64,000 nucleotides of DNA from Candidatus Latescibacterota bacterium (GCA_965207885.1 OZ242311.1:2592001-2656000); one strand, 5' to 3'. Shown: positions 19,605 to 41,322, numbered from the stretch's first letter. The notes: generated by a model from the sequence alone, not told the origin. A program made the numbers and translations.

Positions 19605-19621
19605 ATTCCTTGCTCTGATAG

Positions 19622-19837: not shown

Positions 19838-20226
19838 AGTCGGTTGCCCTCCTGAATCCTGAATGTATTTCTCTTGTGAACGAACGAAATCTGCGGGTTA
19901 AGTTGAATAATAAAGTACGCACCGTACCCCTGTCAACAGAAAACCGCAAATTTTCAAACTGAGACACTACCCACGGATCGGCTGACTCCTCCCGGGTATT
20001 TTCGCCAGGTCGCAGGATCATCCCGCAATACGCCCTCTCTCTCCAGCCGACGCCAGATCGTTGATTCCATCTCTGCGGCGTCTTCGGGCGTAAAGGCGCG
20101 CACCTTGACGTAGCCTCGGGTGGAGAGCTGCTCAAGGTCTTGTTCATTCAGTGGTCCATCAATCGTCATGGAATTGCCTTTCTACATCGGTGAATAAAAA
20201 AATGAATTCGCCACTGATGTCAATCA

Positions 20227-20323
20227 TGGCAGAGGGTGTGGGGATCGAACCCATATACGGGATATCCCACAGGATACCCGTAGCCCTCGGTTTGGAAGCC
20301 TCGGGGCCAGCACCACTGGCTCA
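20227..20323 (-). tRNA. non-canonical tRNA-like gene (allo-tRNA/tRNA-Sec-like), 5' acceptor strand missing; probable pseudogene
   Basis: D-arm GCCAG-TGGTG-CTGGC, anticodon arm with loop CTTCCAAA, 11-bp variable arm, T-arm TGGG-TTCGATC-CCCA, 3' end CACCCTCT-G-CCA. Confidence 0.7.
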
Positions 20324-20402
20324 ATAATACGACGATGTCATAAAATGGAATGTTTCGGATGGGATAGGGGAGACTACACCTTATTGGTCTCGAAGCGCTT
20401 GC

Positions 20403-20426
20403 GTCTAACGATGGGGGTGGTTGATG
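20403..20426 (-). other. collapsed attC-like site (CATCAAC, 10 nt, GTTAGAC)
   Basis: Perfect GTTRRRY core just downstream of the methyltransferase stop. Confidence 0.5.
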
Positions 20427-20437
20427 TGGCAGGGCTT

Positions 20438-21199: not shown

Positions 21200-21237
21200 G
21201 TTTGGGGTCTCCTCAACACATCGGTTCAGTGAAATAT

Positions 21238-25249: not shown

Positions 25250-25313
25250 TTGAAATCGCAATAAGCTATAGACCCATTTGTCCCGACACAATAGGAATAC
25301 ATACTGATCGGGC
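25250..25313 (-). repeat. fragment X, diverged copy of 32322-32381
   Basis: ATAAGCT.TAGA.CCATTTGTCCCGA...AATACA.AC..TCGGGC shared. Confidence 0.7.
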
Positions 25314-25395
25314 TGCCATTTCTTCATTGCTTTCTCTCGCGGATTTGTTCATATAAACAAGCCGTTATTATCTTTTTAAAACAGGAGGTTATCAG

Positions 25396-26376
25396 ATGTC
25401 CAAGCCGCTTTATCAACTGGACTGGCAGCGTTGGGAGCAGCCGGTTCTGTCGGGGATGACCACAAACCAGGACTGGTGCCGGGTGACGTTGTACAGCCCG
25501 ACTGTTCTCCGTATGGGCGATACGTACAAAATGTGGTACCTGGGCAACCGAACGGCCACGCGTACGAGCGATATGGATCTGGGGTATGCCGAGTCCCCGG
25601 ATGGGCTGACCTGGACGCCACATCCGGACAATCCGATCCTCAGCGGCGGGTTGCCGTGGGGCCGTGCGTGGCAAACGCCGCACGTGATTTTCGACAGCGA
25701 TGAGAATCTTTACAAGATGTGGTTCGTGATGGCTGACAGCCGTCCGGGTGAGGGGGGTAGGGCGATCGTTCTGGGACAGAAGCTGGGGTATGCGACCAGT
25801 TTCGACGGTCTGGCATGGGAGGCCTACTCCAAGTCGATCTATCCGAGCGGGCGGGGGCCGTGCGTGTTGAAGGAGGGACCAAATGCCTACCGCATGTGGA
25901 TGTGTTCATCCCCCAGTCCGGACGGAGAATTTGGAGATCTGGTCGGGAATATCTACCACTTCGAATCGACCGACGGCATCGCCTGGACGCGGGATCCCGA
26001 ACCGATGATCCGGGCCACGGAAACGCACCGGAGCGTGGTCTATCCGAGCGTTTTGCGGGATGGGCAGGGATATACGATGTGGTACGGATGCCATGTGGAG
26101 GGAGGAATCTTTGAGATTTTCTGTTCAACGTCGGAGGACGGACTGAATTGGACGCACCACCTGAAGGAGTCTTCGTTTCCCGCAACACGCGATCCGAACG
26201 ATTTCGACGGACGATACACATCTACGCCATGCGTACTGGACGACGGTGACCGCTACCTGATGTACTATTCCGCCCGAGACTGGGGAAACCTCTACCGGGC
26301 TGGGGACGGGACGATTAAGACCGACGGCGCGGGTATTTATCGCCACATCGGAGTGGCCGTATGTCCGAAGGAATAA
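25396..26376 (+). CDS. five-bladed beta-propeller glycoside hydrolase-like protein
   Basis: Repeated YKMWY/GYAESPDGLTW/STDGIAW blades. Confidence 0.8.
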   Translation: MSKPLYQLDWQRWEQPVLSGMTTNQDWCRVTLYSPTVLRMGDTYKMWYLGNRTATRTSDMDLGYAESPDGLTWTPHPDNPILSGGLPWGRAWQTPHVIFDSDENLYKMWFVMADSRPGEGGRAIVLGQKLGYATSFDGLAWEAYSKSIYPSGRGPCVLKEGPNAYRMWMCSSPSPDGEFGDLVGNIYHFESTDGIAWTRDPEPMIRATETHRSVVYPSVLRDGQGYTMWYGCHVEGGIFEIFCSTSEDGLNWTHHLKESSFPATRDPNDFDGRYTSTPCVLDDGDRYLMYYSARDWGNLYRAGDGTIKTDGAGIYRHIGVAVCPKE

Positions 26377-27371
26377 ACCGATTTATTCGAAGATAGCCAA
26401 TCTAACTACCCCACCAAAACGAGTCAAGTCCACTCAGACTTTAACGTTGCTCCGACGACTTTATTCGCTTCACGACGGGAGCTCTCTTCCTTGGAGGATA
26501 ATCTGGGTGCAACCCGGCCATTCGCGGCGTCTGGGGACGGATCGGTCCCCAGTTGATCGCATAGGGGTGATCCTTACAGAGTTGCTCGATCTTTTCCCAG
26601 GCGGCGAGTACGTTCGCCTCTTCCCTTTTGTCTCCGTTCCAATACCGGGTCATTCCAGCGCGAATGTCGATCATGTGGCGGGTGTGATCCAGGCCTATGC
26701 GGACGAAATCGATCCGCGCCCCGAATCGCTCCGGTTCGTCCGTAACCTTGCGTGACGCCTGGTCGAGTAGCGCGTAAGCGCGGTCGAAGAACGCCTTGTC
26801 ATAGACATCCGGGTATGCTCGTTCACTTGCCCAAAAGATGCTGCGCGTCTCCTCCATCAGATTCCAATAGGCCTCGAGTTCCGTGGCTGCTGGGCCGAAT
26901 GCACGTTGATAGTAATTCTGTAGAATCGCCTGCCCATCCTGCGACGGATCCCACAAGAGATGCGCCATGAGATAGTATTGTGGCCCGTGCGTTGCCCAGT
27001 GTTCCCATACCATATCGACAAAGATGCCCATCGCTTTTTCACCGATCAGTTTGAAGTCCTCAATTGCTTGTATGAGAGCCACATCCGGCTGCCCCTGAGG
27101 CCAGCCTGCGGGGTCACCGACATTGGGTCGCCACATCATGTGCTTCGCGACCTTCGACCACGCGATGTATTGCTCTTTGTGTGTGGAACCCCTGGTCGAA
27201 CCACGGTCGATCAGGCCGTCTCGGTTGAGGAAATTCGCCACGCTTGCCACAATGACATTCTCTGCCGGAACTTCGCGAATCGGAGCAGGCCGGGAATGCC
27301 CGTAGGCCAGCATCATGACATAGTAGTCTCGATCCGGATAGCGCTGCTTGAGTAGCCGCGCACATGTGTTA

Positions 27372-28308
27372 GGTAGTGTCTGAAAAGTCGTAAAGTATGT
27401 ATTTTAGTTGCAGCATACGCCCTAAACCAAGGAGTATGATATGCAACGGAGATATGAACTGCGCGACGAGGCTTGGCATCTGATCCAAGACCTGTTCCCA
27501 CCGCCGAAGAAGATGGGTCGTCCCCGTCGGGATGATCGTACATTATTCAACGGGATCTTCTGGATATTGTGTTCAGGTGCAGCTTGGCGCGACCTGCCAG
27601 AACGATATGGTCCTTGGCAGACAGCCTTTGACCGATTCTGCAAATGGAAACAGGATGGCACCTTTGATCGCATTGTAGAAAAGCTACATCTCAAATTGGG
27701 TGAAGATGGTCTTTTAGATTATGCGACCTGGATGATGGATGCAACCCATATTCGAGCCACACAAGCCGCGGCAGGAGCGAAAAAAAAAGGGCAAAAAGGG
27801 TGAAGAAGAGCCCCCAGATCACGCTTTAGGACGCTCTCGTGGCGGTTTGACCACGAAAATCCATCTTCTTTGCGATGCAGTCGGGCATCCTTTAGCAGTG
27901 GATCTTCTCCCTGGTAACCAGTCAGAATCCACACAGGCTGAAAGGCTACTGTCAAAGGTATGCATACCCACCAAACGAGGGCGTCCAAGAAACCGACCCA
28001 AGTATCTGGTAGCTGATAAATCTTATGATGTCTCACGCATCAGAGTCTATCTACGCAAACGGGGTATCAAGGCTGCTATCCCAAACAAGGCGATTCCCAA
28101 AGGCAGAAAACGGCGTAAGAGAGGACCACGGCCTAAGTGTGATAAAAGATTATATGCCAAACGCAATATCGTGGAGCGTCTCTTTGGTTGGCTTAAACAC
28201 TGCCGACGGATTGTGACCCGATTTGAAAAAAAGGCGACTCATTTTCTCACTATGGTCAAGCTGGCCTGTATCAGACAACTCTTCAAAGCTTACTTTTCAG
28301 ACACTACC
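27372..28308 (+). mobile_element. IS5-family insertion sequence (IS427-like), 937 bp
   Basis: 17-bp terminal IR GGTAGTGTCTGAAAAGT, flanked by duplicated TA. Confidence 0.92.
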
Positions 28309-28311
28309 TAG
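27441..28311 (+). CDS. IS5-family transposase in two ORFs, probable -1 frameshift at the A9 run (27780-27788)
   Basis: GAAWRDLPERYGPW, MDAT, GRSRGGLTTKIH, ADKSYD, RNIVERLF..LK..RRI.TRFEK. Confidence 0.92.
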
Positions 28312-29366
28312 CAAACCGGACGTGTCGATCAGATAGTGCGGGCCGTTCCTGCCTGGTCCCTTTCCAGTGAAACGAACGGAGTTCGCCATCCGGATGGTCC
28401 CAGGCGCAACAGGGCTCACAAACACAATGCCCGCTAGCCCAGCCGTCGTTAGGCGACGCATTGAAGACGCGTTGATTTGGGTTTTGTTTTAGTGCTTTCT
28501 CGACATCCGCGAGCCATTGCTGCGGTACCTCCGGATTCGATTGGCAGAGCTTGGCGTATTTGGGTTGTGGAAATCCGCTCCGCGTTCCGTCAGGCTGAAG
28601 GGCGAAGTATTCGGGGTGTGTTTCATGAAATCGCTCCCACCAGTCGCGGAATCCATGCCCCCCTTCCATTTCGAGGGAACCCAACTGCAGCCGTTGACGG
28701 CGTGTCCACTTCTGGGATCGACCGTATGATCCCCTGGGCGCCAGCCTGGAGTAACTGAACAGTCCGGCCCGGAAACGAAGACTGGGATGGTAGCGATAGC
28801 TGAAGGTCGCGAAGCGGATGGATTCCTGCGGGATGATATCCTCGCCGAGATCGCCAGGCCAGAGCCAACGCACGCCGAGTCGATCGTGCAGAAACGTATA
28901 GATCGCATTTACAGTCCCATACTCTTGCTGGATTCCCTCGATCCGTTTCCCGTTGATCTGTGCAATCAGGTGGTTGGGATCCCAACGGTCTCGCCCCGCG
29001 ATTACGAGGTGCTTTTCGCTCGCCGCGATGACGATTTCCTCGGGGTGTTGGAAGTCGAAGTCGATATTTGGAAACAGCGAATCAAGCGCCGGTTGGTAAC
29101 CCACCCAGATGGCCCGATCTGGGAATTGGCGGGGTGGACCGTCGATCCATTCCGGTCGAGTGCCACAGGTTTTCTCGATGTAATCGGCAAGATCAATCGC
29201 GGCTTTGCGCGTGAATGGTGGTGCATCTGGAAAGAGGATCAGCGGCGCCGGTTTGATCCCGGCTTTTTTGTCCACGAGGGTGAACTCGGCGGTATCGGCT
29301 GCTGAAATCGAGGTTAGCACGATGGAAACGGTGCGGAGCAGCTTGATTTTTTTTAACATGTTTTAT

Positions 29367-29475
29367 TCCATTCATATACACTTAATATTTGGTTAGGTTG
29401 AGAATGACTTGCCCTCAGTCTCTTTAAAAGGACTGCTTCAACCTCAACAAATCGGTTCAGTAGCCCGTATTATGC
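29367..29475 (-). repeat. R1 repeat, copy a
   Basis: Matches 34933-35058 and 40471-40537; mosaic of 21183-21230 and 20604-20670. Confidence 0.9.
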
Positions 29476-29481
29476 ACTGTC

Positions 29482-30183
29482 TCAATCACCGACTATCTTA
29501 TTCTTTCTAAGAATCGGAAATTCGGCACCTTTCATTCCGGTGTCTGTCAAATATGTAAGGTTGCAATGATGATACGCACAGATATAGCTTCTACGTAATT
29601 TATCAGATGAATTGGAGCCGCTTCTATGTAGAACATGCGAATGAAAAATAGCGATTTCACCTGCGTGCATTTCGATGGGGACCTGATTTTTATCATCCAC
29701 ATCTTGCGCGAACCGACCTGCGTAGAATGTTTCCGTTTCTCTCAAGAATACATGATCAAGTCGTCCCCATTTGTGTGAGCCTGGTATCACCCATAGACAT
29801 CCATTGCGGATAGTAACAACATCAAGGGCAACCCAACACGTGATGTAATTTTCAGGCTCTGTCAGACCGTACTGAGCATCTTGATGCCAATGAAATTCTT
29901 TGCCTTGAAACGGAGGTTTATGAGCTATCAAATTCCAATGAAGATCAGCATTGGGCCCAATCAGTTTCTTACAAGCTTCGACAAAGAGAGGTTGTTTTAC
30001 GAACTCTGCAAATAGATCACTCTCCAAATGAGGATTACGTTGAAACCATTTGGGGTTGTCTGTGTTATATTTTTCACATTCCGACGTCAACTTATTGAGC
30101 CACTCACCTGTGACTTTTTGTCCAGCAACGAAAAACCCTTTCTCATCAAAGTCACGAAGATTACGGCTGGTTATGATATCCAT
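29482..30183 (-). CDS. PhyH-family dioxygenase
   Basis: WHQD, WVALD, NGCLWVIPGSH, HRSGSN. Confidence 0.93.
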   Translation of the reverse strand: MDIITSRNLRDFDEKGFFVAGQKVTGEWLNKLTSECEKYNTDNPKWFQRNPHLESDLFAEFVKQPLFVEACKKLIGPNADLHWNLIAHKPPFQGKEFHWHQDAQYGLTEPENYITCWVALDVVTIRNGCLWVIPGSHKWGRLDHVFLRETETFYAGRFAQDVDDKNQVPIEMHAGEIAIFHSHVLHRSGSNSSDKLRRSYICAYHHCNLTYLTDTGMKGAEFPILRKNKIVGD

Positions 30184-30229
30184 TTTGGCCTCGCCTCCCT
30201 CAACCTGGTTTATCTATGAAATAGTCTGT

Positions 30230-30259
30230 GCAATCCGAATCGTATATACTATGTTAGGC
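30230..30259 (-). other. attC-like left half-site (R'' GCCTAAC)
   Basis: Perfect RYYYAAC shortly after the MFS stop. Confidence 0.55.
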
Positions 30260-30275
30260 GCCTCGCAGACCCAGA

Positions 30276-31514
30276 TCATGGTTTTTTGTCTTCGATACTA
30301 ACAATAGATGGAATCATCCGAGCAGAAGTTCCGAGAATGAGGGTCAGTACTCCCGCCGCTAAAAACCACGGCTGCGGGCCAAATACATCGGTTACGGGAC
30401 CTATCACGATGAGCCCAAGCATAGTTGTAAATTGCACGGAACTATGAAGAGCGCCAAATACACGGCCTTGTAGATGGGGATCGACATTGGCCTGAAGGAG
30501 TGCGCGGAGAGGCGCGTTAATTAGCGAGCTACCGACGCCGCTTAAAGCTATGCCCGTGATGGCTAAAGCAAAGCGGGTATGAGGGGCGATACCTACGAGT
30601 ATTGTTCCAATGCCATATACAATCCAGCCGAAGATCGTCGTCATGATTCGGCGACGGAATCCACCCCAGGCCCCGATCAGAAGACCTCCCAGGACAATGC
30701 CCACTCCCCAGGCAGAATTAAACCAACCAAGTTCGGTAGCACCTCCATTGAAGTGATCTGTTATCAAGAGAGGCGAGATGGTCATCTTCGTGTTCCCAAA
30801 TATGTTTAATACGGCAGCAATTAAGATTAAGTTCCGAAGACCAATCCATCTCCACAAATAACGAAATCCTTCCAGCATATCAACCCAGATGCCAACTCCC
30901 TGGCTTTGCTTTTCCTCCATCCTTTTGGGCTGTGGAATCATAATGAAGATGAGGGGACAGATAGCCAGCATTGCCGTCAAAACATCGAGGGCCAATATGA
31001 TATGCATCTCGAATAAGGCCAGTGCCAGTGCTCCAAGGGGAGGCCCTCCCATGCTGAGTACTCCATGCAGGGTTTGGTTCGTCCCCTGGATTCTGGCCAG
31101 ATGTTTTTCTGGCACCATCAGAGGCGTGGCAGTTATCATCGCCAGGCCCTGGAATGCACGGCCAATACTCGCCAGGAAGTTTACTGCGTAGATATGCCAG
31201 ATCTCGATAATTTCCATCCAGAAAAGACCTGCCAGACCGGCCATGGCTATCGCGACAAGCGTATCCGAGACGAGCATTACAATTCGGCGGTTCCATCTAT
31301 CATTCAGTGTGCCAATGATAGGAGCCAGGAAGACTTCTGGCAGATAGGCGACAAGGACTGAGGTCGCGAGAATGGTCGCAGATCCTGTCTCTTCCGTAAG
31401 CCACCACACCAGGGCAAACTGTGCAACTTGAGTTCCAAGAGACGACAGCGTTTGTCCGGTCCAGATGGTAAAGAAGCCGCCAGCCCATGAACCATCTCTA
31501 TTCAGACGAATCAA
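30276..31514 (-). CDS. MFS transporter, DHA3/Mef-like
   Basis: IWTGQTLS, GTLNDRWNRR, QGRVFG. Confidence 0.9.
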   Translation of the reverse strand: MIRLNRDGSWAGGFFTIWTGQTLSSLGTQVAQFALVWWLTEETGSATILATSVLVAYLPEVFLAPIIGTLNDRWNRRIVMLVSDTLVAIAMAGLAGLFWMEIIEIWHIYAVNFLASIGRAFQGLAMITATPLMVPEKHLARIQGTNQTLHGVLSMGGPPLGALALALFEMHIILALDVLTAMLAICPLIFIMIPQPKRMEEKQSQGVGIWVDMLEGFRYLWRWIGLRNLILIAAVLNIFGNTKMTISPLLITDHFNGGATELGWFNSAWGVGIVLGGLLIGAWGGFRRRIMTTIFGWIVYGIGTILVGIAPHTRFALAITGIALSGVGSSLINAPLRALLQANVDPHLQGRVFGALHSSVQFTTMLGLIVIGPVTDVFGPQPWFLAAGVLTLILGTSARMIPSIVSIEDKKP

Positions 31515-32099
31515 TCATCTCTCCTTTTTATCTGAATCGGCAAGAAAGAACGTTCCCCTCTTTTTGAATCTAAAACTCTCATCGGGTACGACGAACGCCA
31601 GTTTATCACACAAAAAAGAGCCAGACGGAGCTGAATTTTGGAGCCGTACACAAAGCTCAAGGCTCTCGTCTATGGAGATGAACTCAGCAATGGTCATGTG
31701 CGGAGCTATGTTGCGCCTGTGATACGCTTCGCCGGAAAATGCCGATGTACTGTGGAGGATCTGCTTTAAATTATCGATAGGCTCTCGTGGCCTTATCGGA
31801 TACGAGACGCCAGGGTGCCTGGTTGAGGCATGCGGCTTGTCGTAATGAAGCGTGAATGGCTGGACATCCGTAAGGACGTTGTTGATTTCATCGATAAGAT
31901 CAGGTGTCATTTCCCGACCCAAGGGATCTGACAAAGAGATGTGCGTCGGGCAGGAGGCAGCTGAGCGGGGATCATACTTTGCTCGCAAGAGGTCGATATC
32001 CTGAGATACCTCTGGAGGGGGCATGATAAGGATGAGGCCAAATCGGTAGTCGCGTTGCCAATCTTCCCACTTTGATGTGTCTTTTACGTATGGAATCAG
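31515..32099 (-). CDS. 2'-5' RNA ligase-like 2H phosphoesterase, duplicate of 36101-36691 with ATG changed to CTG
   Basis: HISL and HMTI motifs; near-identical DNA to the other copy. Confidence 0.8.
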   Translation of the reverse strand: MIPYVKDTSKWEDWQRDYRFGLILIMPPPEVSQDIDLLRAKYDPRSAASCPTHISLSDPLGREMTPDLIDEINNVLTDVQPFTLHYDKPHASTRHPGVSYPIRPREPIDNLKQILHSTSAFSGEAYHRRNIAPHMTIAEFISIDESLELCVRLQNSAPSGSFLCDKLAFVVPDESFRFKKRGTFFLADSDKKER

Positions 32100-32131
32100 G
32101 AGGAACTCCCACGGGGTGATAGCATCGACGT

Positions 32132-32239
32132 GTTAGCCGTTCGTGACGCGTCTTCTATTTGCGCCGCTGATCAGCAATATACTCACGTAGCTTCTCGATC
32201 GCGGGAGAATCCACATCCCGAAGCGGCATGACGGCTAAC
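32132..32239 (-). pseudogene. emptied copy of the nucleotidyltransferase cassette (both ends and last about 20 codons retained)
   Basis: GTTAGCCGT...DVDSPAIEKLREYIADQRRK*...ACGGCTAAC; matches 36724-36812 and 37343-37362. Confidence 0.88.
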
Positions 32240-32390
32240 GTCTTTGACTTAAGAAAAAAATACCTGGCTTCGGTTTATACCCCATTTTTCGATTTACAGC
32301 AAGTATTCGTTCATTATTGGAATCATTATAAGCTGTAGATCCATTTGTCCCGATGTAAGAGAAATACAGACCGCTCGGGCAACATGCGGT
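32240..32390 (-). pseudogene. fragment X fused to a GNAT-like 3' tail (tail also at 37363-37439)
   Basis: NERILAVNRKMGYKPKPG resembles a GNAT C-terminus; DNA matches 37363-37439. Confidence 0.75.
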
Positions 32391-32412
32391 CCTTAAATTC
32401 GCCTCTACCTGG

Positions 32413-32880
32413 TCAGGGCGGTACACGCTCCGCCTCCTCAAAACCTAACCGGTGGAGAAGCCGGACAGACCGTTTGTTTGCAACAACGCATCTGGCTTCA
32501 ATTTCGCCGAGGTCCAAATCTTCAAAACCTACCTGCAGGATGCTCCGGACAGCCTCTGACGCAAAGCCCTGACCCCAATAAATGGGCGACAATTCGTAGC
32601 CTATGTCGCCCCGTCGGCTCTCAATACTTTCTGTGCGTATTCCGCAGTTACCGAGTAATACCCCATTTGAGCGGTCCGTGATGGCGAACTGGAACTTGCA
32701 TCTTGGATTTTTTTTGGACCATGCGATGCACTTATCTACAAATCGGACACACTCCTCTCTGGTGTAGGCGGGCCGATAGTAGTATTCCAGATACCTCGGG
32801 TCCCTCCTGAACTCAGCGATGGCGTCCACGTCTTGTTTGGTGAACTCTCTCAGGAGCAGGCGTTCAGTCAGCTTTTCCAT
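32413..32880 (-). CDS. GNAT acetyltransferase, RimJ/RimL type (C-terminus possibly truncated)
   Basis: TERLLLREF, YWGQGFASEA, NKRSVRLLHRLGF. Confidence 0.85.
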   Translation of the reverse strand: MEKLTERLLLREFTKQDVDAIAEFRRDPRYLEYYYRPAYTREECVRFVDKCIAWSKKNPRCKFQFAITDRSNGVLLGNCGIRTESIESRRGDIGYELSPIYWGQGFASEAVRSILQVGFEDLDLGEIEARCVVANKRSVRLLHRLGFEEAERVPP

Positions 32881-32899
32881 ATAGAAAGGCCATTCTGAA

Positions 32900-33424
32900 T
32901 TACGTTTGGAGCCGTTGAAAGGCTTTAAGAGTTGACGGATCAGTGACTATTTTCCTTGCGGCTTCAATAGTCAACCATTTGGTAGCATAGAATTCCTGTA
33001 GATCAACGTTGAAATTGCTGCCATCTGTAAGAAGCAAATACCAGATGTCATAATGAGACTGACAGGGTTGCACGGGATTTTCTATTGGTGTAATGGTCAA
33101 CAAAAACGGTTGTGGTTCGGATTTAAAAAAGCGCCATATTCCCAATTCTTCACCTATCTCACGGTTCAAAGCTGCCAAAAGCGTCTCGTCTTTATCTACA
33201 TGGCCACCAGGAGAAAGCCAGAGGCCAGACTTTTTATGGTGGATGACAAATACCTTTTTGCTCTGGGAATCATAGGGCAGAAAATAGACACAAAAGTGGG
33301 TCTCCGGATTTTCATCTCGCGTTGGTTTTCCTTCTTTCACTCTTTGTTTATAGCGACTATAGGTTTCCCCACTGTCACATATATCACGGTTGATAACTTT
33401 TGCAATTGATTCTTGTGTTTTCAT
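32900..33424 (-). CDS. NUDIX hydrolase
   Basis: PGGHVDKDE......REIGEELG Nudix box. Confidence 0.92.
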   Translation of the reverse strand: MKTQESIAKVINRDICDSGETYSRYKQRVKEGKPTRDENPETHFCVYFLPYDSQSKKVFVIHHKKSGLWLSPGGHVDKDETLLAALNREIGEELGIWRFFKSEPQPFLLTITPIENPVQPCQSHYDIWYLLLTDGSNFNVDLQEFYATKWLTIEAARKIVTDPSTLKAFQRLQT

Positions 33425-33474
33425 ATTGGAGTTTCCCAGATACTGTTTCTTTAGTTTTGCCTGTTTTGCTGTCT

Positions 33475-34275
33475 TTACTTGGTTATCGACCAGTAGGTAT
33501 TGGTGATATGTGGTGAACCCGCGTAGGGTTTGCCGTCGTGGCTCCCGTATAATTTCCATTGGTCAAATCCGCTCAATCTCAGTAGTAACTGAAATTCTTC
33601 CTTGTGAATCCAGCGAGTCTGCATTGGCACTTTGGCCGTTTCCCCGTCATACTCAAATGTCCAGGTATAGGTTTCCGTCTGCGATGTCAGATCACATATT
33701 TTTGAATAATTAACCTGAATCGGTTTCCCTGTCTCGGGGTGCATGCACTCACCGAACTCCTCCTCTGCTGGCGGGATGTTTTGGTGAAGGAGTATGTCTT
33801 CTGTATAGGAGGGAATGTAGAAGTTCAGGAGTAGGCGTCCTCCTGGCTGCAGGTGCTCATAGACACGTCGAAGGCAGTCTATTTGGCTTTGCTGAGTTGG
33901 CAGCATCATGAAGGAACTGGCAGGTATGAGAACCGCTGCAAATTGGCGGTCGTAGATAAAATTGGCAAGATCCTGTTGTGAGATTCGAGAATCTATATCT
34001 GAAATTCCCAAATTTATTGCTTTGTGTCTGAGCACTTCCAACATGGGGAGCGAAATATCAAACCCAAAGATATCAAACCCATCCAGCAGCAGAGGCAGCA
34101 TTTTACAACCCGTTCCACAGGCAGCCTCCAATATCGCACCGCGCGTGTTCTGCAATTGATTTCGGTAAAAATGTAATTCCCGTTCATTTAGTGCAGAGCG
34201 GCCACCAGTCTCGTTCCATTGGTCATAGATTAGCGCCCACCAATGGGTATCATAGTTACTTCCAGTCTCTTGCAT
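33475..34275 (-). CDS. class I SAM-dependent methyltransferase
   Basis: ILEAACGTG, GFDIS, LQPGGRL. Confidence 0.9.
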   Translation of the reverse strand: MQETGSNYDTHWWALIYDQWNETGGRSALNERELHFYRNQLQNTRGAILEAACGTGCKMLPLLLDGFDIFGFDISLPMLEVLRHKAINLGISDIDSRISQQDLANFIYDRQFAAVLIPASSFMMLPTQQSQIDCLRRVYEHLQPGGRLLLNFYIPSYTEDILLHQNIPPAEEEFGECMHPETGKPIQVNYSKICDLTSQTETYTWTFEYDGETAKVPMQTRWIHKEEFQLLLRLSGFDQWKLYGSHDGKPYAGSPHITNTYWSITK

Positions 34276-34352
34276 GAGTAACCCTATGCAAAGATAGGTT
34301 TTGTTTTTTCGTTATATACAGTTTTTATATAGTCGGGTTTTCTCTTTATTTT

Positions 34353-34925
34353 TCAGTCATTTAATGAAATCTTTAAGTTTATTGCTGCCAGCAAACCTCC
34401 ATAGTCAATCGACTTGAAGTCTGTAGTATCAATCTCAAAGATAGAGCCGCCTATGTCCAACGCCTTATACTTTTCATTTATCAGAAATTCGTCGAATTGG
34501 TCGGACGTTACCAAATGATCTGTATGGCCGGGATGGCGCTCCCCAGATTCAGACCGCGCTTTGAATCTCTTAAAGAGCACACCAGCATCGGTTTTGCACA
34601 GGATCTGGAATGGTTCAAAGTCATGTCTCTTTTTTAATTCCAGGAGTTTTGGCGTATCAAACTTGGGAATAAATGCTGTGTCAACAATAAGCGATCTTCC
34701 CGCTTCAACTTGAGTTTTCAGGAAAAAATGCAAAAGTGCCCAACTGGCATGGATTAACCCTACACGAAATTCCCTATCTTCCCAGCCAAGGGTGTCGAAG
34801 AGGACTTCCTTAATGCCATCCTTGCTCAGAAAGGGCAGGCAGAGTTGCTTAGCCAGTTTTCTTCCTAATGTTGTTTTGCCAGTACACGGAGCACCGTTAA
34901 TAATAATAAGCAAAGATTTTGTCAT
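34353..34925 (-). CDS. P-loop kinase (AAA_33-like)
   Basis: GAPCTGKTT Walker A, SKDGIKE, RHPGH. Confidence 0.88.
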   Translation of the reverse strand: MTKSLLIIINGAPCTGKTTLGRKLAKQLCLPFLSKDGIKEVLFDTLGWEDREFRVGLIHASWALLHFFLKTQVEAGRSLIVDTAFIPKFDTPKLLELKKRHDFEPFQILCKTDAGVLFKRFKARSESGERHPGHTDHLVTSDQFDEFLINEKYKALDIGGSIFEIDTTDFKSIDYGGLLAAINLKISLND

Positions 34926-34932
34926 TCGTCGA

Positions 34933-35058
34933 GAGTTCTCCATTCATATACACTTAATATTTGGTCAGGTTGAGAATGACTTGTCCTCAGTCTCTTTAAA
35001 AGGTCTGCTTCAAGTTTAGGGTATCCTTAACAAATCGGTTCAGTAGTCCGTATCATGC
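34933..35058 (-). repeat. R1 repeat, copy b (longest)
   Basis: Matches copies a and c; also supplies the stop codon of the upstream GNAT. Confidence 0.9.
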
Positions 35059-35591
35059 CTGGATTCAAATTCTGTGCGCAAAATCCCGAATAAGAGCCTA
35101 TCCCAACGTCGGTTGGCCCAATAGATAGCCTCGCGCTCGCACCCTTCCTGAGTAAACCCGAGTTTTTCGAGAACTCGGATGGCACCTGTATTATTGGAGG
35201 CTGTCACAGCCGAAATCCTGTACAGGTCCAAATGCTCAAACCCAAATTGAAGGATTACCTGTGCGGCATCTGTGCAGTACCCCTTGCCTCTATCCCTCCT
35301 GCGGGCAATGCCAGCACCGAGGCTGGCGGTACGATTTCTCAAGTCGATTTCCGATAACTGAATATCGCCAAGGAGATTTCCATCTGGACTGAAGATGCCC
35401 AGGTAAATTTGAGTTTTTCCTTGTTGCTCTTGGATCTCCTCAAACCATTTGTCCGATCCCTCGAGTGAATGACCAGGTCTGACGGGTTCAGTCGGAATTG
35501 GATCCTCGAGTTCATAATGTTCCCAAAGGGTGCGACAATGCTCGCGTTCCATTGTCCGCAATACCACTTTTTTACCACGTAGCTCAATCAT
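35040..35591 (-). CDS. GNAT acetyltransferase, RimJ/RimL type
   Basis: RGKGYCTDA, NTGAIRVLEKLGFTQEG. Confidence 0.9.
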   Translation of the reverse strand: MIELRGKKVVLRTMEREHCRTLWEHYELEDPIPTEPVRPGHSLEGSDKWFEEIQEQQGKTQIYLGIFSPDGNLLGDIQLSEIDLRNRTASLGAGIARRRDRGKGYCTDAAQVILQFGFEHLDLYRISAVTASNNTGAIRVLEKLGFTQEGCEREAIYWANRRWDRLLFGILRTEFESRHDTDY

Positions 35592-35619
35592 GAGAGATAA
35601 CCTCGTGATTTACCAGATC

Positions 35620-36078
35620 TCATATCCTCTTTTCAAAAAAAACCACATCAAACCCGGATATCCTTTGCCGTTCAATTTCACAATATCCATTCTTTTCATA
35701 TAGTTTGCGAGCCGCAATCTGCTGCACTGTTGTATCCAGGCAGAGTATTTTATAACCCAGATCATTTGCTCTCATCTCAAGTCTATTCAGAATCGTCTGA
35801 CCAAACCCTCGTCTTTGAAAATTGGGATGGACGCGCATTCTTTTAATTTCTGCCTTATCATCTGAAATTCGTTGCAAAGCACCTATTGCAACCAATTTCT
35901 CTTTGCAAAATCCTGTCAAAAACTCGCCTTTGTCAGATAGATATGTCTCTTCAATAGTATGCAGGTCATTGTCCTGAGCGCCGCTACCTGCATTCGCTCC
36001 AACCTGATCCAGTGCTAAGTTGTGTAGATTCCAGACTTCATTGTGGTCAGAAGCCCGATAACGACGAATTTTCAACAT
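35620..36078 (-). CDS. GNAT acetyltransferase
   Basis: AEIKRMRVHPNFQRRGFG, ARKLYEKNGY; AGGGAG RBS. Confidence 0.92.
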   Translation of the reverse strand: MLKIRRYRASDHNEVWNLHNLALDQVGANAGSGAQDNDLHTIEETYLSDKGEFLTGFCKEKLVAIGALQRISDDKAEIKRMRVHPNFQRRGFGQTILNRLEMRANDLGYKILCLDTTVQQIAARKLYEKNGYCEIERQRISGFDVVFFEKRI

Positions 36079-36100
36079 GGATATCTCCCTTGCGAAATTC

Positions 36101-36691
36101 CTAAGAAGTACTTGCGTTTTTACCTGAATCGGCAAGAAAGAACGTTCCCCTCTTTTTGAATCTAAAACTCTCATCGGGTACGACGAACGCCAGTTTATCA
36201 CACAAAAAAGAGCCAGACGGAGCTGAATTTTGGAGCCGTACACAAAGCTCAAGGCTCTCGTCTATGGAGATGAACTCAGCAATGGTCATGTGCGGAGCTA
36301 TGTTGCGCCTGTGATACGCTTCGCCGGAAAATGCCGATGTACTGTGGAGGATCTGCTTTAAATTATCGATAGGCTCTCGTGGCCTTATCGGATACGAGAC
36401 GCCAGGGTGCCTGGTTGAGGCATGCGGCTTGTCGTAATGAAGCGTGAATGGCTGGACATCCGTAAGGACGTTGTTGATTTCATCGATAAGATCAGGTGTC
36501 ATTTCCCGACTCAAGGGATCTGACAAAGAGATGTGCGTCGAACAGGAGTCAGCAGAGCGGGGATCATACTTTGCTCGCAAGAGGTCAATCTCATGGGAGA
36601 CTTCTGGAGAGGGCATTATAAGGATGAGGCCAAATCGGTAGTCGCGTTGCCAATCTTCCCACTTTGATGTGTCTTTTACGTATGGAATCAT
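36101..36691 (-). CDS. 2'-5' RNA ligase-like 2H phosphoesterase
   Basis: Two HxS/T motifs (HISL, HMTI). Confidence 0.85.
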   Translation of the reverse strand: MIPYVKDTSKWEDWQRDYRFGLILIMPSPEVSHEIDLLRAKYDPRSADSCSTHISLSDPLSREMTPDLIDEINNVLTDVQPFTLHYDKPHASTRHPGVSYPIRPREPIDNLKQILHSTSAFSGEAYHRRNIAPHMTIAEFISIDESLELCVRLQNSAPSGSFLCDKLAFVVPDESFRFKKRGTFFLADSGKNASTS

Positions 36692-36746
36692 GAGGAACTC
36701 TCACGAGGTGATAGCATTGACGTGTTAGCCGTTCGTGACGTTTCTT

Positions 36747-37304
36747 CTATTTGCGCCGCTGATCAGCAATATACTCATGTAGCTTCTCGATCGCGGGGGA
36801 ATCCACATCCCGCAGAGGTGCACCAGCCGGGTGTTTGTGGAAATTTACCTTTTCGTCCAGTTGGGCTTCAGCGCTGAGGATCGGACAGGTCAGGTCACCC
36901 AGTCGGCCTTCAGGTGCAGAGAAAGCGCCTTGTGGATACGGCCAATCGGTCCACCGGCCAGAGGTAACAATATCTCCCGATTGGGTCTTTTCGAGAAGCC
37001 CAAAACTGACAAACTGATCAAGTTTGTAGAAGCCAATGTGTTCTTCGGGATGCCGTAGCTCCTTGCGACTATACCCCAGGGCTTCGAGGCAGGTGCTTAC
37101 TGTAGGGGCATCTGTTTTCCAAATTGCCCAGTCTATGTCGCTGTGGACCCGCAAGCTTTCGCCTAACAGAAAATCCAAAGCCCACCCACCACCCAACCAG
37201 TGCGGAATAGAACGAGCTGTCAATACCTCATGAATTTCTCTGATCAGCCCAAGCTGGATGGGATTCGGATCTTCCAGACATCCGCGAATTATAATTTTAG
37301 ACAT
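36747..37304 (-). CDS. ANT(2'')/Lnu-like nucleotidyltransferase in a cassette-like unit
   Basis: GGWALDFLLG...RVHSDID; flanked by (A)TTAGCCGT (37356-37362) and ACGGCTAAC (36724-36732). Confidence 0.8.
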   Translation of the reverse strand: MSKIIIRGCLEDPNPIQLGLIREIHEVLTARSIPHWLGGGWALDFLLGESLRVHSDIDWAIWKTDAPTVSTCLEALGYSRKELRHPEEHIGFYKLDQFVSFGLLEKTQSGDIVTSGRWTDWPYPQGAFSAPEGRLGDLTCPILSAEAQLDEKVNFHKHPAGAPLRDVDSPAIEKLHEYIADQRRK

Positions 37305-37323
37305 GGATCAAACTCATAGGAAA

Positions 37324-37353
37324 CATGCCGCTTCAGTGTTCTGAAGCGGCATG
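37324..37353. promoter_or_regulatory. perfect 13-bp hairpin in the cassette leader
   Basis: CATGCCGCTTCAG-TGTT-CTGAAGCGGCATG. Confidence 0.7.
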
Positions 37354-37628
37354 ACGGCTAATGTCTTCGAGTTAAGAAAAAATACTTGGCTTTGGTTTAT
37401 ACCCCATTTTTCGATTTACAGCAAGTATTCGTTCATTATATGAAAAATTACCCATATTAGATTCTCAATAAGGCTTTTGCATCCTCCCATTGAATTTGCA
37501 AATTCGTTCGCTAATGATTCTAAGTAAGGTAGGTATCTCTGAAAGTGATTTGATATGGGATCTGACACACGACAACTCAGGACATGAAGTATGGAACATT
37601 ACTGTCCAACAATGTCTATTCGTCAGAT

Positions 37629-40028
37629 CTATAAACGTCTGAGTGCCTTTACTGGGTCGGAATTCGCTGCACGAAGCGTCTGCGACCCAACTACTGTGAG
37701 AACAACTGCTACCATCACGGCAACAACAACACCGAACAGCCACGGACTCATTGTGGTTTGGAGGGGAAACTGGTTTAACCAGAGGTGGTTTGCAAACCAC
37801 GCAGCAGGAGCTGCAAGTAGAACCGCCACAACAAGCATCAAGAGAAAATCCTTTGACAAGAGCACAGCGATCTGCCAAGAACTCGCTCCCAGAACCTTAC
37901 GTATTGCAACTGCCTTGACCTGCATTTCCATGACATGCATAGCTATTCCCAACACGCCAAGTAAGGCCAAAAGCACCCCGAAAGCGCTAATCAGAGCAAT
38001 GATATGCAAAACATCGGAATAGACTCCAGCGAGCATTCCTTTTTGGATTTGCGTCGTAAACAGATCGTACTCCACTTTCCAAGGACTTCCTAACTCAGGC
38101 CAGACCTGTTCGAGGTGCGCAACCGCCTCAGGCATATGGCCGGGTAACACGCGCACGTTTGCCCAATGTATACGCGCTGGCTCACAGAGCAGTATGACAG
38201 GATCAATATCCATGCCTATGCCATATGTCTGAAAGTCTTCCAGAATCCCCACAATGGTAGGTTTCGTGTTCTTCCCTGACACGTTCAAGATTTGACCTAT
38301 CGCTTGCTCTTCGTTTTCCAGACCTAGCAGCCGAGTAGCGGTTCTATTGAGCAGCACACTCCTGTGAATATCCGACGGGCGATTGAAGTAACGGCCTGCA
38401 AGTAGCTTGAGTTTCAGGTTCGAAACAAAATTGTAGTCCACTCTTAATTCGAAAACTGTCTTAGGATCACCTCTCCCAATCGTCACCGAACGTGCTGATC
38501 GTCCACCCTGCATCAGAATCTGTGAGGAACCAGAAATGAGCTCCACTGAGGGCGATTGCTCCATCGCCTGCCGGAACACGTCGTAGCCCACTCCCTGAAG
38601 CCGTACGTTCACTATATTTTCATGATCAAATCCATAGTCGGACGATACCAAATATCGGAACTGCTGGTACACGAACAGGGTCGAGAGGACGAAGAATAAC
38701 GACATGCCAAACTGCCCCACCACAAACATCCGATTGAATGACTTGGCTCGATCCTTTGTAAAACTTCCTCCCTTCAAGATCAAGACTGGGACGAATCGGG
38801 AAAGATGAAGTGCGGGGTAGGTGCCCGCAAGAATGCCTACGCCTACGCTGAAGCCAAGGACAGTGAGATAGACCGTCAGATCTTTGAGAACGTCGAGCTT
38901 GATGCGGGCCAAGGGAAAAAATGAAGTAAAGTACATCTCGTTGAAAGCAGGAATTAACCATACCAACAGCCACATGGCAAAAAACGTCGCCAGCAATACT
39001 GTTAGAATCGACTCCATCAAGATTTGGCCAATGATCTGTCTGCGATATGCACCTACGACTTTCCGAATTGCCACCTCGTGGGCTCTGGCCATTGCTCTGG
39101 CCACAATTAAGTTGGTATAATTGTAGCACGCCCCTATCAGTATTATAGCGGCCAGAACACTAACAAAATAAACAGCCATGCCAGGAACCATCCAACTAAG
39201 TTGGTTAACTCTCATGACGCTCAGGTTGAGGTCGGTCAGTAATTGGACACTTACCCTCTCCATCTGTCGATCTGTACTGGGATAGTAGTGGTCTTGAATG
39301 ATCTGTGTGAAGTATCTTTCCAGGACCGTTGGGTGGGTACCTTCTCGTAAGACCAAGAATGTGTATGTGTCATTCATGCCATCGCTCCACCGAGGAATGC
39401 CGCGGGGTGGCGCAAATTTCAAGGTCTCAAACGACACCAAGATCTGAAACCGTACATAGCTAGCCCCTGGCGGATCCGCCAGGACGCCCGTTACCTTGTA
39501 TGGCGTCTGTCCGATCATCACAGTCTGATTCAGTGGGCTGGAATCTCCAAAGAATGCAACCGACTGGTTCTGCGAAAGCACGATGGAATTGGGTTCGGAA
39601 AGCGCGGTAGCGGGATTCCCCTCCACAAGAGCGAAATCGAATACCTCGAAAAACGACGGCTCGGCATAAAGGCCAGACACTTTAATTTGACTTTGACTGC
39701 CGAGAAAGCCCATGGAACCACGGAATCTGCGTACCCGTGTCGTCACTTCTACATCTGGGCAGACATCTTGAAGAAGCGAAGCAAGACTCACAGGTGTCGT
39801 TGCGTAGCGAACACGACCAGGGTTGCTGGACGAACGGTAGTCGCAGATGGTGAGATAGATACGATCTGCCTTCTTGTGCCATGCATCAGACGTTTTTTGG
39901 TATGACACAAACAAGATGATCAGCAGGCAGATCGACAGACTTGCTCCTAGTCCTAAAACGTTGATCATTGACAAGATTTTATTCTTTAACAGATTCCGAA
40001 CCGCTACAACCAGATAATTACGCAGCAT
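37629..40028 (-). CDS. MacB/FtsX-like ABC transporter permease (duplicated-domain type)
   Basis: MLRNYLVVAVRNL, two EVAIRKVVGA-type motifs, DPVKALR. Confidence 0.92.
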   Translation of the reverse strand: MLRNYLVVAVRNLLKNKILSMINVLGLGASLSICLLIILFVSYQKTSDAWHKKADRIYLTICDYRSSSNPGRVRYATTPVSLASLLQDVCPDVEVTTRVRRFRGSMGFLGSQSQIKVSGLYAEPSFFEVFDFALVEGNPATALSEPNSIVLSQNQSVAFFGDSSPLNQTVMIGQTPYKVTGVLADPPGASYVRFQILVSFETLKFAPPRGIPRWSDGMNDTYTFLVLREGTHPTVLERYFTQIIQDHYYPSTDRQMERVSVQLLTDLNLSVMRVNQLSWMVPGMAVYFVSVLAAIILIGACYNYTNLIVARAMARAHEVAIRKVVGAYRRQIIGQILMESILTVLLATFFAMWLLVWLIPAFNEMYFTSFFPLARIKLDVLKDLTVYLTVLGFSVGVGILAGTYPALHLSRFVPVLILKGGSFTKDRAKSFNRMFVVGQFGMSLFFVLSTLFVYQQFRYLVSSDYGFDHENIVNVRLQGVGYDVFRQAMEQSPSVELISGSSQILMQGGRSARSVTIGRGDPKTVFELRVDYNFVSNLKLKLLAGRYFNRPSDIHRSVLLNRTATRLLGLENEEQAIGQILNVSGKNTKPTIVGILEDFQTYGIGMDIDPVILLCEPARIHWANVRVLPGHMPEAVAHLEQVWPELGSPWKVEYDLFTTQIQKGMLAGVYSDVLHIIALISAFGVLLALLGVLGIAMHVMEMQVKAVAIRKVLGASSWQIAVLLSKDFLLMLVVAVLLAAPAAWFANHLWLNQFPLQTTMSPWLFGVVVAVMVAVVLTVVGSQTLRAANSDPVKALRRL

Positions 40029-40214
40029 TATAGCCTCTTAAAGTTTGACTCGATTTGGTGTGTACCTTAGATCCTATATGAAAGATAAGAAGAAGAGACT
40101 GCGAATACAAACCGATTGGACCATTGAAAGAAAATGATCATTTAATTTGGATTAGATAGCCGACGAAAGTCTATTCTAATTAGTGTAATTAATGGCACTG
40201 GCCCTGCAAACGCC

Positions 40215-40566
40215 GCGGACAATTCGTAGCCTATGTCCCCCCCCCCAGCCCTCAATGCTTTCTGTGCGTATTCCGCAGTCACCAAGTAATACCCCATTTG
40301 AGCGATCCGTGATGGCGAACTGGAACTTGCATCTTGGATTTTCTTTGGACCATGCGATGCACTTATCTACAAATCGGACGCACTCCTCTCTGGTGTAGGC
40401 GGGCCGGTAGTAGTATTCCAGATACTTGGGGTCTCTCCTGTACTCGGCGATGGCGTCCACGTCTTGTTTGGTGAGCTCTCCATTCATATACACTTAATAT
40501 TTGGTCAGGTTGAGAATGACTTGTCCTCAGTCTCTTTTCAAAAAAAATCACATCAAACCCGGATAT
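40215..40566 (-). pseudogene. three-part mosaic: GNAT 35620 tail, R1 copy c, and internal part of GNAT 32413
   Basis: 40531-40566 matches 35628-35662; 40471-40537 is R1; 40215-40478 matches 32585-32848. Confidence 0.9.
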
Positions 40567-40581
40567 CTTCGAAATCGCTTT

Positions 40582-41322
40582 TCAGAGTTTCTTGCCTATC
40601 GCGCAGAAGACATTGTCATAGGATTCGCCCAGATCCGAGGCTCGAAATATTTGGATGTCCTGGAACCCGGCCGCTAAGTACAGGTTCTGGACTTCCTTCT
40701 CGTCAAAATAGTGCCAAAAGACCGGGCCCTCCCCGTCCTCACTCTTGAGAACTAAGTCACCTTCTTCCAGGCCTGCGTTCTGGTCAACTCCCTCGTATCT
40801 CATATCATCGGTAACACGGGGGAGTGTAGAGGCACCATCGTGAACCGAAAGGGACATACGTCCGGCAGAGGTGAGAACTCGAAAGGCTTCGTTTGCGAGG
40901 GTCTTGCGAGCTCGCGCAGTGGGGACGTTGGCGAGAACCTGACTCCATAAAGTAACTATGTCATATGAATCATCCGGTTCTGAAAATATGGCTCCATCAG
41001 TAACTTCAAACTCGACCTGGCTACCGGATTCGATGGCTATACTTCGGGCCGCTGAAATAAGCGTATCGGATATGTCTATTCCCTTCACGCGAAAGCCCAG
41101 ACTTTCAAGGGCAAAGGCTTCACGTCCGGCGCCACATCCTACGACCAGAGCACGGCCGACATCCGGAAAGAATCGGTCAACCATGGCCTGTTCCCATCTG
41201 CGCAGTCCTTCGCTGACCCTCCGTACGTACTTCTCAGTTGCCTGAGCAGTAGAGTAGCTATGTCGAACCTGACGGGCCAAATCACTTTTCTTTTTTAGAT
41301 TCACTTCTTTCGAGCGAGCCAA
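40582..41322 (-). CDS. class I SAM-dependent methyltransferase
   Basis: ALVVGCGAGRE, GIDIS; start uncertain. Confidence 0.85.
   Translation of the reverse strand: MARSKEVNLKKKSDLARQVRHSYSTAQATEKYVRRVSEGLRRWEQAMVDRFFPDVGRALVVGCGAGREAFALESLGFRVKGIDISDTLISAARSIAIESGSQVEFEVTDGAIFSEPDDSYDIVTLWSQVLANVPTARARKTLANEAFRVLTSAGRMSLSVHDGASTLPRVTDDMRYEGVDQNAGLEEGDLVLKSEDGEGPVFWHYFDEKEVQNLYLAAGFQDIQIFRASDLGESYDNVFCAIGKKL

Follow-up and report, generated by a model that had tools for sequence, protein, structure and literature searches.

How does a row of bacterial genes come to carry the same gene scraps several times over, in the same order, with different genes between them? The question is raised by a window of 64,000 nucleotides (GCA_965207885.1 OZ242311.1:2592001-2656000; positions below count from its first letter) in the 6,228,721-base genome of an uncultured sponge-associated Latescibacterota bacterium, here called G000. 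By Pfam annotation, positions ~1-42,300 of the window form a ~42 kb array of mostly small accessory genes, nearly all on the minus strand. It includes at least nine GNAT acetyltransferases and at least nine methyltransferases, along with NUDIX, kinase, ANT(2'')-like, APH-like, glyoxalase, 2H, MFS, HAD and other genes. Larger genes (sulfatase, BNR, DUF4838 and LamG) also lie inside the array, and three array genes are on the opposite strand. Read along the minus strand, the array runs through a common series of landmarks up to three times, in stretches that we call passes 1, 2 and 3. The account that we favour, by a modest balance of probability, is serial tandem duplication followed by random loss through short-homology recombination, filtered by selection for intact genes.

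Self-comparison of the window recovered all the recurring landmarks listed in an initial annotation of this DNA to within a few bases and in the order given there, and whole-genome BLAST of these anchors found matches confined to the present locus. Only one repeat of the region is dispersed, an insertion sequence of 941 bp at 27370-28310, with 22 further near-identical copies in the genome. The features, in reading order with the likely parent of one remnant added last, are these.

Pass 1, 40532-40567, minus strand: 36-nt 3' scrap of a GNAT35620-type gene, 97% identical to 35627-35662.
Pass 1, 40473-40537, minus strand: R1_A, the 3' part only of a methyltransferase remnant, 98.5% identical to 34933-34997 and 88% to 20604-20670.
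Pass 1, 40218-40480, minus strand: 5' fragment of a GNAT32413-type gene, 92.8% identical to 32588-32849; partial Pfam Acetyltransf_3 match.
Pass 1, 37525-40223, minus strand: insert with an ABC/ADOP-like permease gene (open reading frame, ORF, 37629-40028; Pfam MacB_PCD + FtsX twice) and short flanks.
Pass 1, 37343-37450, minus strand: 3' remnant of another GNAT gene, then a GTTAGC-like box; 90.8% identical to 32220-32328.
Pass 1, 37324-37353, minus strand: 13-bp perfect hairpin upstream of the nucleotidyltransferase gene; folding z -5.7.
Pass 1, 36747-37304, minus strand: intact ANT(2'')-like nucleotidyltransferase gene (Pfam PF10706, 4.5e-14).
Pass 1, 36101-36691, minus strand: 2H phosphoesterase gene, copy A (Pfam PF13563); 36117-36818 is 96.6% identical to 31525-32226 over 702 nt, the last 300 nt being identical.
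Pass 2, 35620-36077, minus strand: intact GNAT35620 gene (Pfam Acetyltransf_1), a module present in relatives.
Pass 2, 35040-35591, minus strand: intact GNAT35040 gene (Pfam Acetyltransf_3).
Pass 2, 34926-35058, minus strand: R1_B, its 5' part matching 21183-21230 (90%) and its 3' part 20599-20670 (85%).
Pass 2, 32900-34943, minus strand: P-loop kinase (34353-34943), methyltransferase (33475-34275) and NUDIX (32900-33424) genes, identified by Pfam; deleted in pass 1.
Pass 2, 32317-32880, minus strand: GNAT32413 gene including the landmark X (32317-32380, or X_B), with a premature stop, as defined by comparison with homologues.
Pass 2, 32025-32328, minus strand: GNAT tail (32220-32328) and emptied nucleotidyltransferase gene, of which a 524-nt deletion has left the last ~200 nt.
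Pass 2, 31515-32024, minus strand: 2H phosphoesterase gene, copy B (Pfam PF13563).
Pass 2, 29482-31514, minus strand: MFS transporter (30276-31514) and PhyH dioxygenase (29482-30183) genes, the end of the unit (Pfam).
Pass 3, 29367-29475, minus strand: last 19 nt of GNAT35040 (29457-29475) and R1_C; by self-comparison 86% identical to 34939-35058, with one gap.
Pass 3, 26441-29359, minus strand: DUF4838 gene split by the insertion sequence (DDE_Tnp_1), with Pfam matches to both halves.
Pass 3, 25250-25313, minus strand: X_C, an old 3' remnant of a GNAT32413-type gene, upstream of a sulfatase gene; 78% identical to X_B (E 3e-7 within the window).
Outside the passes, 20438-21289, minus strand: intact methyltransferase gene of the R1 parent type (Pfam Methyltransf_25).

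The anchors are remnants of genes and not sites. Within the intact methyltransferase gene R1 has its counterparts at 21183-21244 (5' part) and 20599-20686 (3' part), and to judge from these alignments R1 is a methyltransferase-type gene with an internal deletion of ~512 nt. R1_B and R1_C have the same internal joint, and R1 was thus copied after the deletion. The landmark X corresponds to the final ~29 codons of GNAT32413: in the 11 full-length homologues found in 10 relatives (181-193 aa) the reading frame runs through X, while in G000 a premature stop at 32413-32415 ends the protein at 155 aa. The residues past the conserved DKW at the C-terminus of this protein vary with the neighbouring gene. 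Likewise, the "tails" are 3' gene ends, from a GNAT35620-type gene in one case and from a different GNAT gene in the other. The initial annotation had treated the anchors as a conserved scaffold for recombination, with X as a landmark of its own. Neither idea is supported, the anchors being pieces of genes that are intact elsewhere, with truncation points that differ between genomes, and X being a gene end. Its third pass fares better, in that the R1 and X pieces are both present; to these must be added the 19-nt scrap of GNAT35040, which it had missed, and X_C is older than the rest. X_C also stands beside the sulfatase gene in G003, G008, G009, G010 and G019 (here and below, G numbers other than G000 denote related genomes), and because it holds the same place in other genomes of the genus we take it to be old. 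In G009 the X_C position is occupied by a full GNAT32413 gene.

Pass 1 (40567 to 36101) and pass 2 (36090 to 29482) have five blocks in common, in the same order and on the same strand, and pass 2 begins at the end of pass 1. They are thus collinear, direct, head-to-tail copies, which differ in cargo and, as the initial annotation had recognised, do not make up one clean tandem repeat. Some four to five deletions and one inserted permease gene separate them. Pass 1 is missing most of GNAT35620. A first loss of 629 nt (the GNAT35620 end, the whole of GNAT35040 and the 5' part of R1) has its joint at the 6-nt AAAGAG at 40532-40537, and a second of 2083 nt, which took the kinase, methyltransferase and NUDIX genes together with the start (~30 nt) of GNAT32413, at GAGAG(C/T)TCAC, 40471-40480, where 9 of 10 bases match. 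Both microhomologies had been named in the initial annotation and are borne out here: three-way alignments of the two R1_A joints place the left one at AAAGAG and the right one at GAGAGCTCAC. The GNAT32413 fragment of pass 1 is without its first ~30 nt, has a frameshift at a G-run and ends at 40218; beyond it, 259 nt (the 3' half of GNAT32413 with X) have been replaced by the permease gene and its flanks. At the outer end of the pass, the scrap at 40532-40567 lies directly 3' of the stop of the methyltransferase gene 40582-41322, and its 5' truncation joint is common to G007. Pass 2 in its turn is missing 524 nt of the ANT gene, in a deletion that begins inside the 13-bp hairpin. The junction alignment script anchored two of the four junctions, and the remaining two were read by eye. 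Further joints fall on CCCCTATC, TCTAT, ATGA and TGAGCGG.

The kinase gene begins at the 3' edge of R1_B, and the kinase, methyltransferase and NUDIX run is also present in G010 and G003. Genes 2H and MFS are adjacent in G003, G008, G010, G014 and G017, as are MFS and PhyH in G010. The order in pass 3 is PhyH, GNAT35040 scrap, R1_C, DUF4838. R1_C shares the internal deletion of R1_B and runs straight into the ribosome-binding region of DUF4838. An undeleted counterpart, PhyH-GNAT35040-R1, is found in G008, and the DUF4838 gene is uninterrupted in relatives. Differing internal deletions have inactivated the ANT gene in at least four arrays, namely in pass 2 of G000 and in G017, G010 and G020. 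Among the copies seen, it is intact or apparently so only in pass 1 of G000, in G003 and in G007.

The region was matched in 31 of 41 related genomes, G000 included, and in 16 of the 20 other genomes of the same genus; the relatives are metagenome-assembled genomes (MAGs) of Latescibacterota. We mapped 17 arrays or array contigs from 15 genomes onto the window. In most relatives an esterase/HAD pair borders the array on one side and LamG/hydrolase/sulfatase genes on the other, and the array genes are ~88-99% identical across relatives and stand in many orders. LamG has 10 distinct next genes, GNAT32413 has 8, and GNAT35040, the methyltransferase at 33475, NUDIX, BNR and MFS have 7 each; several gene pairs occur in both orders, and the differences between genomes are spread along the whole array. 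None of 265 blocks was inverted, opposite-strand genes included, and orientation is thus conserved as expected of duplication with random loss. Homology usually starts 0-30 nt ahead of a start codon and stops 0-15 nt past a stop codon, with joints 0-125 nt wide in G008, G010 and G017. Block ends (1269 in all) cluster near ORF starts (26%) and stops (33.5%), compared with 6.5% and 4.0% of random positions, it being understood that neither blocks nor block ends are independent events. Joints also intrude a few codons into genes, which fits selection-trimmed random breakpoints better than a mechanism that recognises gene ends. Any single 11-mer recurred in at most 7 different contexts on both sides, the top words being A-rich and of low complexity; there is, by this test, no site that the joints share.

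Scraps of former neighbours are common in all the arrays. NUDIX, for example, is followed by 26-43 nt of GNAT32413, MFS7710 is preceded by 28 nt of GNAT9018 and 2H by the ANT tail, and there are GNAT35620 tails whose truncation point varies between genomes. Duplicated modules or scraps are also present in the arrays of G006, G019, G004, G015, G020 and G008. Two relatives show losses complementary to those of G000. The first, G003, which of the relatives comes nearest to G000 over the permease region (97.4%), reads ABC-GNAT tail-ANT-2H-MFS-scrap-GNAT35620-GNAT35040-R1-kinase-methyltransferase...NUDIX-DUF4838. It retains MFS after the 2H gene that, as in pass 1, adjoins permease and ANT, and is without GNAT32413...R1_C, and G000 shows the reverse; the losses of the two are reciprocal. 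The second, G007, has the same outer pass-1 joint as G000 and different pass-1 deletions: it retains the stop of GNAT35620, the spacer after it and some ~50 nt of GNAT35040, and then enters GNAT32413 at GAACGC. The two have thus worn down a fuller common pass 1 independently. Single-copy runs in pass-2 order are present as NUDIX-GNAT32413/X-GNAT tail-ANT'-2H-MFS in G017, where ANT' is a deleted copy, and as kinase-methyltransferase-NUDIX-GNAT32413/X in G010. The initial annotation had set against its own reading a single ancestral unit that carried all the cargo and was explained by duplication plus deletion alone. These runs bear out that scheme in part; the permease gain lies beyond it.

We therefore lean towards the following history for the G000 lineage. 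A unit of ~9-10 kb, in the order GNAT35620, GNAT35040, R1, kinase, methyltransferase, NUDIX, GNAT32413, GNAT remnant, ANT, 2H, MFS, PhyH, would have been duplicated head to tail at least twice, and the redundant copies then eroded piecemeal, many of the deletions joining identical stretches of 4-10 nt. Pass 2 would have stayed almost whole, pass 1 would have undergone four or five deletions and taken in one permease gene by illegitimate insertion, and pass 3 would have been whittled down to ~110 nt (the 19 nt of GNAT35040 and R1), with the scraps as deletion leftovers. Replication slippage or unequal crossover may have been the mechanism. Selection would purge cuts into needed genes, leaving the surviving joints clustered just outside gene ends or a few codons inside them. 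Repeated rounds of duplication and random loss, whatever the order of individual events, would shuffle gene order and never invert genes, which is the pattern across the genus; the gene-order diversity among the relatives probably stems from this copy-and-lose process.

Tandem duplication-random loss (TDRL) is a gene-order model for animal mitochondrial genomes. The array resembles it in its head-to-tail multigene duplication, complementary copy loss, retained orientation and pseudogene scraps, and departs from it in lying on a bacterial chromosome, in being made of protein-coding accessory genes, in needing many rounds and in having gained a gene from outside. A literature search on duplication-random loss and bacterial gene order gave, by title, papers on mitogenomes only, and the idea may still be in print. 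Bacterial segments are also amplified and collapsed by short-homology or RecA-dependent unequal recombination, and such amplifications are usually short-lived. The direct repeats, the microhomology joints and the 300-nt identical stretch are like those of segmental amplification; in contrast, the copies in G000 have diverged by ~3-9% and are fixed with different losses in different species. If our account is right, this is a bacterial accessory array caught in the act of having its order scrambled by duplication, short-homology deletion and selection alone, with an outcome that resembles integron shuffling in the absence of integron machinery, inversions or demonstrable attC. It would then bear on the persistence and evolution of cassette-like arrays that have lost or never had an integrase, and on the upkeep of a variable stock of small modifying enzymes in uncultured sponge symbionts.

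Several observations fit this account poorly. The joints of the ANT deletion and of the internal R1 deletion have, by eye, just ~1 nt of microhomology. The enrichment of block ends at gene ends is partly built in, as only intact ORFs were called; for non-ORF DNA alone the figures are 75% compared with 45%. One module edge can recur with several neighbours, as does the edge 28 nt upstream of LamG at 42258, and such edges could be preferred breakpoints or real cassette edges. The order in G014 relative to G000 breaks into 7 increasing runs (counted by hand), which is near a random permutation, and some orders would need many rounds. The permease entered unrelated sites that are beyond the reach of duplication and loss. 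Finally, 2H copies A and B are 94.3% identical outside the 300-nt identical stretch, and orthologues of other species 90.5-93.4%. The two copies are thus barely closer to each other than to orthologues, which implies an old duplication or else the arrival of one copy from a diverged array. A tree of the 402 non-identical nt of 2H is star-like, with none of its 7 inner branches well supported, and the identical 300 nt suggest conversion between the copies. Identity also shifts along contiguous G000-G003 stretches, which again points to an old duplication or to a diverged allele recombined into the array, as the initial annotation had proposed.

This leads to the first of the competing explanations, in which diverged arrays, brought together by transfer between strains or species, undergo unequal or allelic homologous recombination with genes and scraps as the crossover points, and so build the passes; it corresponds to the scaffold idea of the initial annotation. 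The mosaic identities speak for it. Identity between G003 and G000 is 97.4% over permease-GNAT tail-ANT 5' and 92.4% over ANT 3'-2H; some modules are 98% identical next to neighbours at 92% (LDcp, GNAT3256); the divergence of 2H_A and 2H_B is orthologue-like save for the 300 identical bases; and sponge metagenomes hold many alternative joints. However, homologous crossover makes no new joints, yet dozens of different ones exist, the truncation points of the anchors vary between genomes, and anchors of mostly 36-110 nt at 78-98% identity are a poor substrate. We consider this explanation unlikely, if still worth serious weight.

We give a similarly low probability to a bolder proposal, that the array is the recombinase-free functional equivalent of an integron, in which genes are shuffled one by one with orientation kept and with neither integrase, attC nor common site, through joints at common bases around ribosome-binding sites, starts and stops. 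If this were true, template switching or short-homology recombination would drive a standing route of gene shuffling and capture in sponge symbionts, with single genes such as the permease copied to distant loci with variable target duplications.

An array of small genes in one direction also invites comparison with a chromosomal integron whose integrase, after past shuffling by IntI, was lost and whose attC sites have eroded. A complete integron has the integrase IntI, a tyrosine recombinase with an extra domain of its own, an attI site and a Pc promoter at the end where new cassettes come in, and an attC site, an imperfect palindrome of the form RYYYAAC...GTTRRRY, behind each cassette. The genes of the array are of kinds usual in cassettes and nearly all run in one direction, and GTTAG-type boxes in spacers reach ~3.5 times their density in coding DNA, with CGTTAG occurring in spacers four times on the gene strand and never on the other. 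An integron integrase scores above the cut-off in one of the 41 related genomes, G023, of the same family and another genus. Against this, there is no integron integrase (TIGR02249) in G000, where the best hits reach 88.6 bits against a cut-off of 265 and lie more than 0.8 Mb away. A screen for YYYAAC...GTTRRR pairs 35-140 nt apart combined with a folding threshold yielded 34 pattern pairs, none of which passed, and the canonical GTTRRRY/RYYYAAC motifs are not enriched in spacers. Only one of 16 spacers folds better than its shuffles, and this is the plain hairpin at 37324-37353 (z -5.7); in the sister family, all eight array spacers fold no better than shuffles (z -2.2 to +1.6). As homology ends 0-15 nt past the stops, no attC travelled along when neighbours changed. 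Taken together, a decayed integron is decidedly improbable. The initial annotation had proposed a capture route that replaced attC/IntI recombination as the attC sites decayed: the absence of an integrase and the 15 of 16 spacers that do not fold like attC speak for such a route, whereas its premise of an integron in decay finds little support.

Two other candidates were rejected. A hairpin-like site at 2200-2250 has a folding z of -1.0, and a recombinase gene ~70 kb from the array in G039, of the sister family, is XerA-like, its score of 218.6 bits falling short of the cut-off of 220, and has no match to positions 175-234 of the integron-integrase model. A ~70-nt conserved element starting CTTCGGCTAACAACACGGTG occurs in three contexts (window 5790-5930, locus L040 2150-2260 and the G008 spacer after MFS7710) and is the best candidate for an attC-like relic. 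In G000 the CTTCGGCTAACAACACGGTG element falls in the ORF region earlier taken as the 5' end of GNAT5260.

Cury et al. 2016 (PMC4889954) define a cluster of attC sites lacking an integrase (CALIN) by at least two attC sites with no integrase nearby, and regard it as a possible step between gene capture and stabilisation. By those definitions the array is not an integron and its membership of CALIN is unproven. It is like a CALIN in being a one-way row of mostly promoter-poor accessory genes whose order varies among close relatives, with no integrase nearby. It differs in that attC could not be demonstrated in the G000 array and in that neighbours change without attC. A one-directional variable array is by itself no proof of an integron, and in a literature search on integrons and Latescibacter no paper, judged by title, concerned such arrays.

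The permease gene is cargo truly gained. It encodes an ABC/ADOP-like protein with duplicated FtsX (NCBIfam ADOP, 232 bits, below the cut-off), and its copies in 8 loci (4 other genome sites) have 97.1-97.8% identity, the flanks of these loci being 89.6-96.4% identical where long G000 matches exist; with the G000 array included, the copies represent six genome sites. Its ends are ragged, at 40099-40223 (5') and 37525-37622 (3'), and the changes at the target vary: a ~7 bp duplication in G015/G004 (the site being empty in G000), a 394 bp duplication in G010, a partial duplication of the target region in G008, and replaced sequence in G000 (the 259 nt lost). A transposon or fixed-end cassette was rejected for lack of fixed ends or a constant target duplication; the permease gene behaves as a mobile single-gene module. 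Its gain, the two microhomology joints of pass 1 and the reshuffled relatives agree with the earlier proposal that cargo is gained, swapped and lost at microhomologies without IntI. IntI is reported to insert cassettes outside att sites (10.1101/2022.09.11.507474), placing single genes at many genome sites. The permease gene is likewise at many genome sites, and differs from such insertions in its ragged ends, in its duplications (~7 or 394 bp) or deletions at the target and in the absence of IntI.

A dedicated and so far unrecognised mover of single genes, independent of attC and IntI and fixed in orientation, could work by template switching at translation-signal microhomology or through an unknown recombinase. 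It would explain the module edges that recur with different neighbours, the lack of a single inverted block even among opposite-strand genes, and the permease at unrelated sites with its unequal target duplications. It is nevertheless very unlikely, as no common motif emerged, the edges are ragged and cut ORF ends, and no recombinase gene lies in or beside the array save two insertion-sequence transposases. In the wider search, Ku (PF02735) had no match in the genome, and the three reverse transcriptase genes of the genome are all distant from the array.

As for the assembly itself, sponge metagenomes contain 31-49% of sampled words of the stretch, and run X15 contains 95%, with unitigs that match exactly; X15 is probably the source of the assembly, and its depths are a consistency check and not independent proof, as unitigs cannot prove long-range order. 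The permease has a unitig depth of 152, kinase/methyltransferase one of 155 and the flanks 123-138. The 2H piece common to both passes reaches 256, about double, compared with 135-155 for unique parts. Even depth of the unique parts and doubled 2H depth fit two copies in one genome and not strain variants laid end to end. That the passes are such variants, placed serially in the MAG (the refutation that the initial annotation itself had offered), is hardly credible, for although the relatives are MAGs and X15 holds a minor variant with another joint, depth is full over what is unique to each pass and double over what they have in common, the independent MAGs G003 and G007 have the pass-1 joints as well, and the repeats are shorter than long reads. 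The X15 minor variant, at ~1/5 of the depth, joins 30240 to 33450 and has many substitutions in GNAT35040, which points to a second related strain in the sample.

Position 30203-30240 is a scrap of a conserved ~150-nt region that lies downstream of a gene absent from G000; the whole element occurs once per relative array, in varied contexts. As a candidate site this recurrent element was rejected, folding no better than shuffles (z 0.05).

Searches for other features of the region added little. A tRNA/tmRNA scan found none, Rfam gave no match in the window at gathering scores or in 17000-20500 at E<=0.1, and PHROGs applied to four unnamed ORFs returned a transposase match only. The spacer at 20148-20437 ends in a sequence resembling a tRNA T-arm, acceptor and CCA, and is present in more than one copy in the arrays of some relatives (G006); ARAGORN and Rfam were negative for it.

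Outside the window, a second one-directional run of small accessory genes lies ~12-20 kb upstream, beyond a sulfatase cluster (G000:C1:2572001-2580158). It encodes beta-lactamase-fold proteins, histidine phosphatases, APH, GNAT, methyltransferase, EamA and DUF2442. Within the array, a 2.77-kb insertion at 17206-19971 is bounded by 29-bp inverted repeats (17206-17234 and 19943-19971) and contains, besides an IS1-like transposase gene and the unnamed ORF 18510-19142, a long non-coding stretch; its flanks, 17207 and 19972, are contiguous in G008, G010 and G017. Finally, the Stf0 sulfotransferase and APH-like kinase genes at 12257-14076 are an insertion relative to G003, G008 and G017, in which 14075 is joined straight to 12256, and the insertion is flanked by TCTAT and CCTAT.

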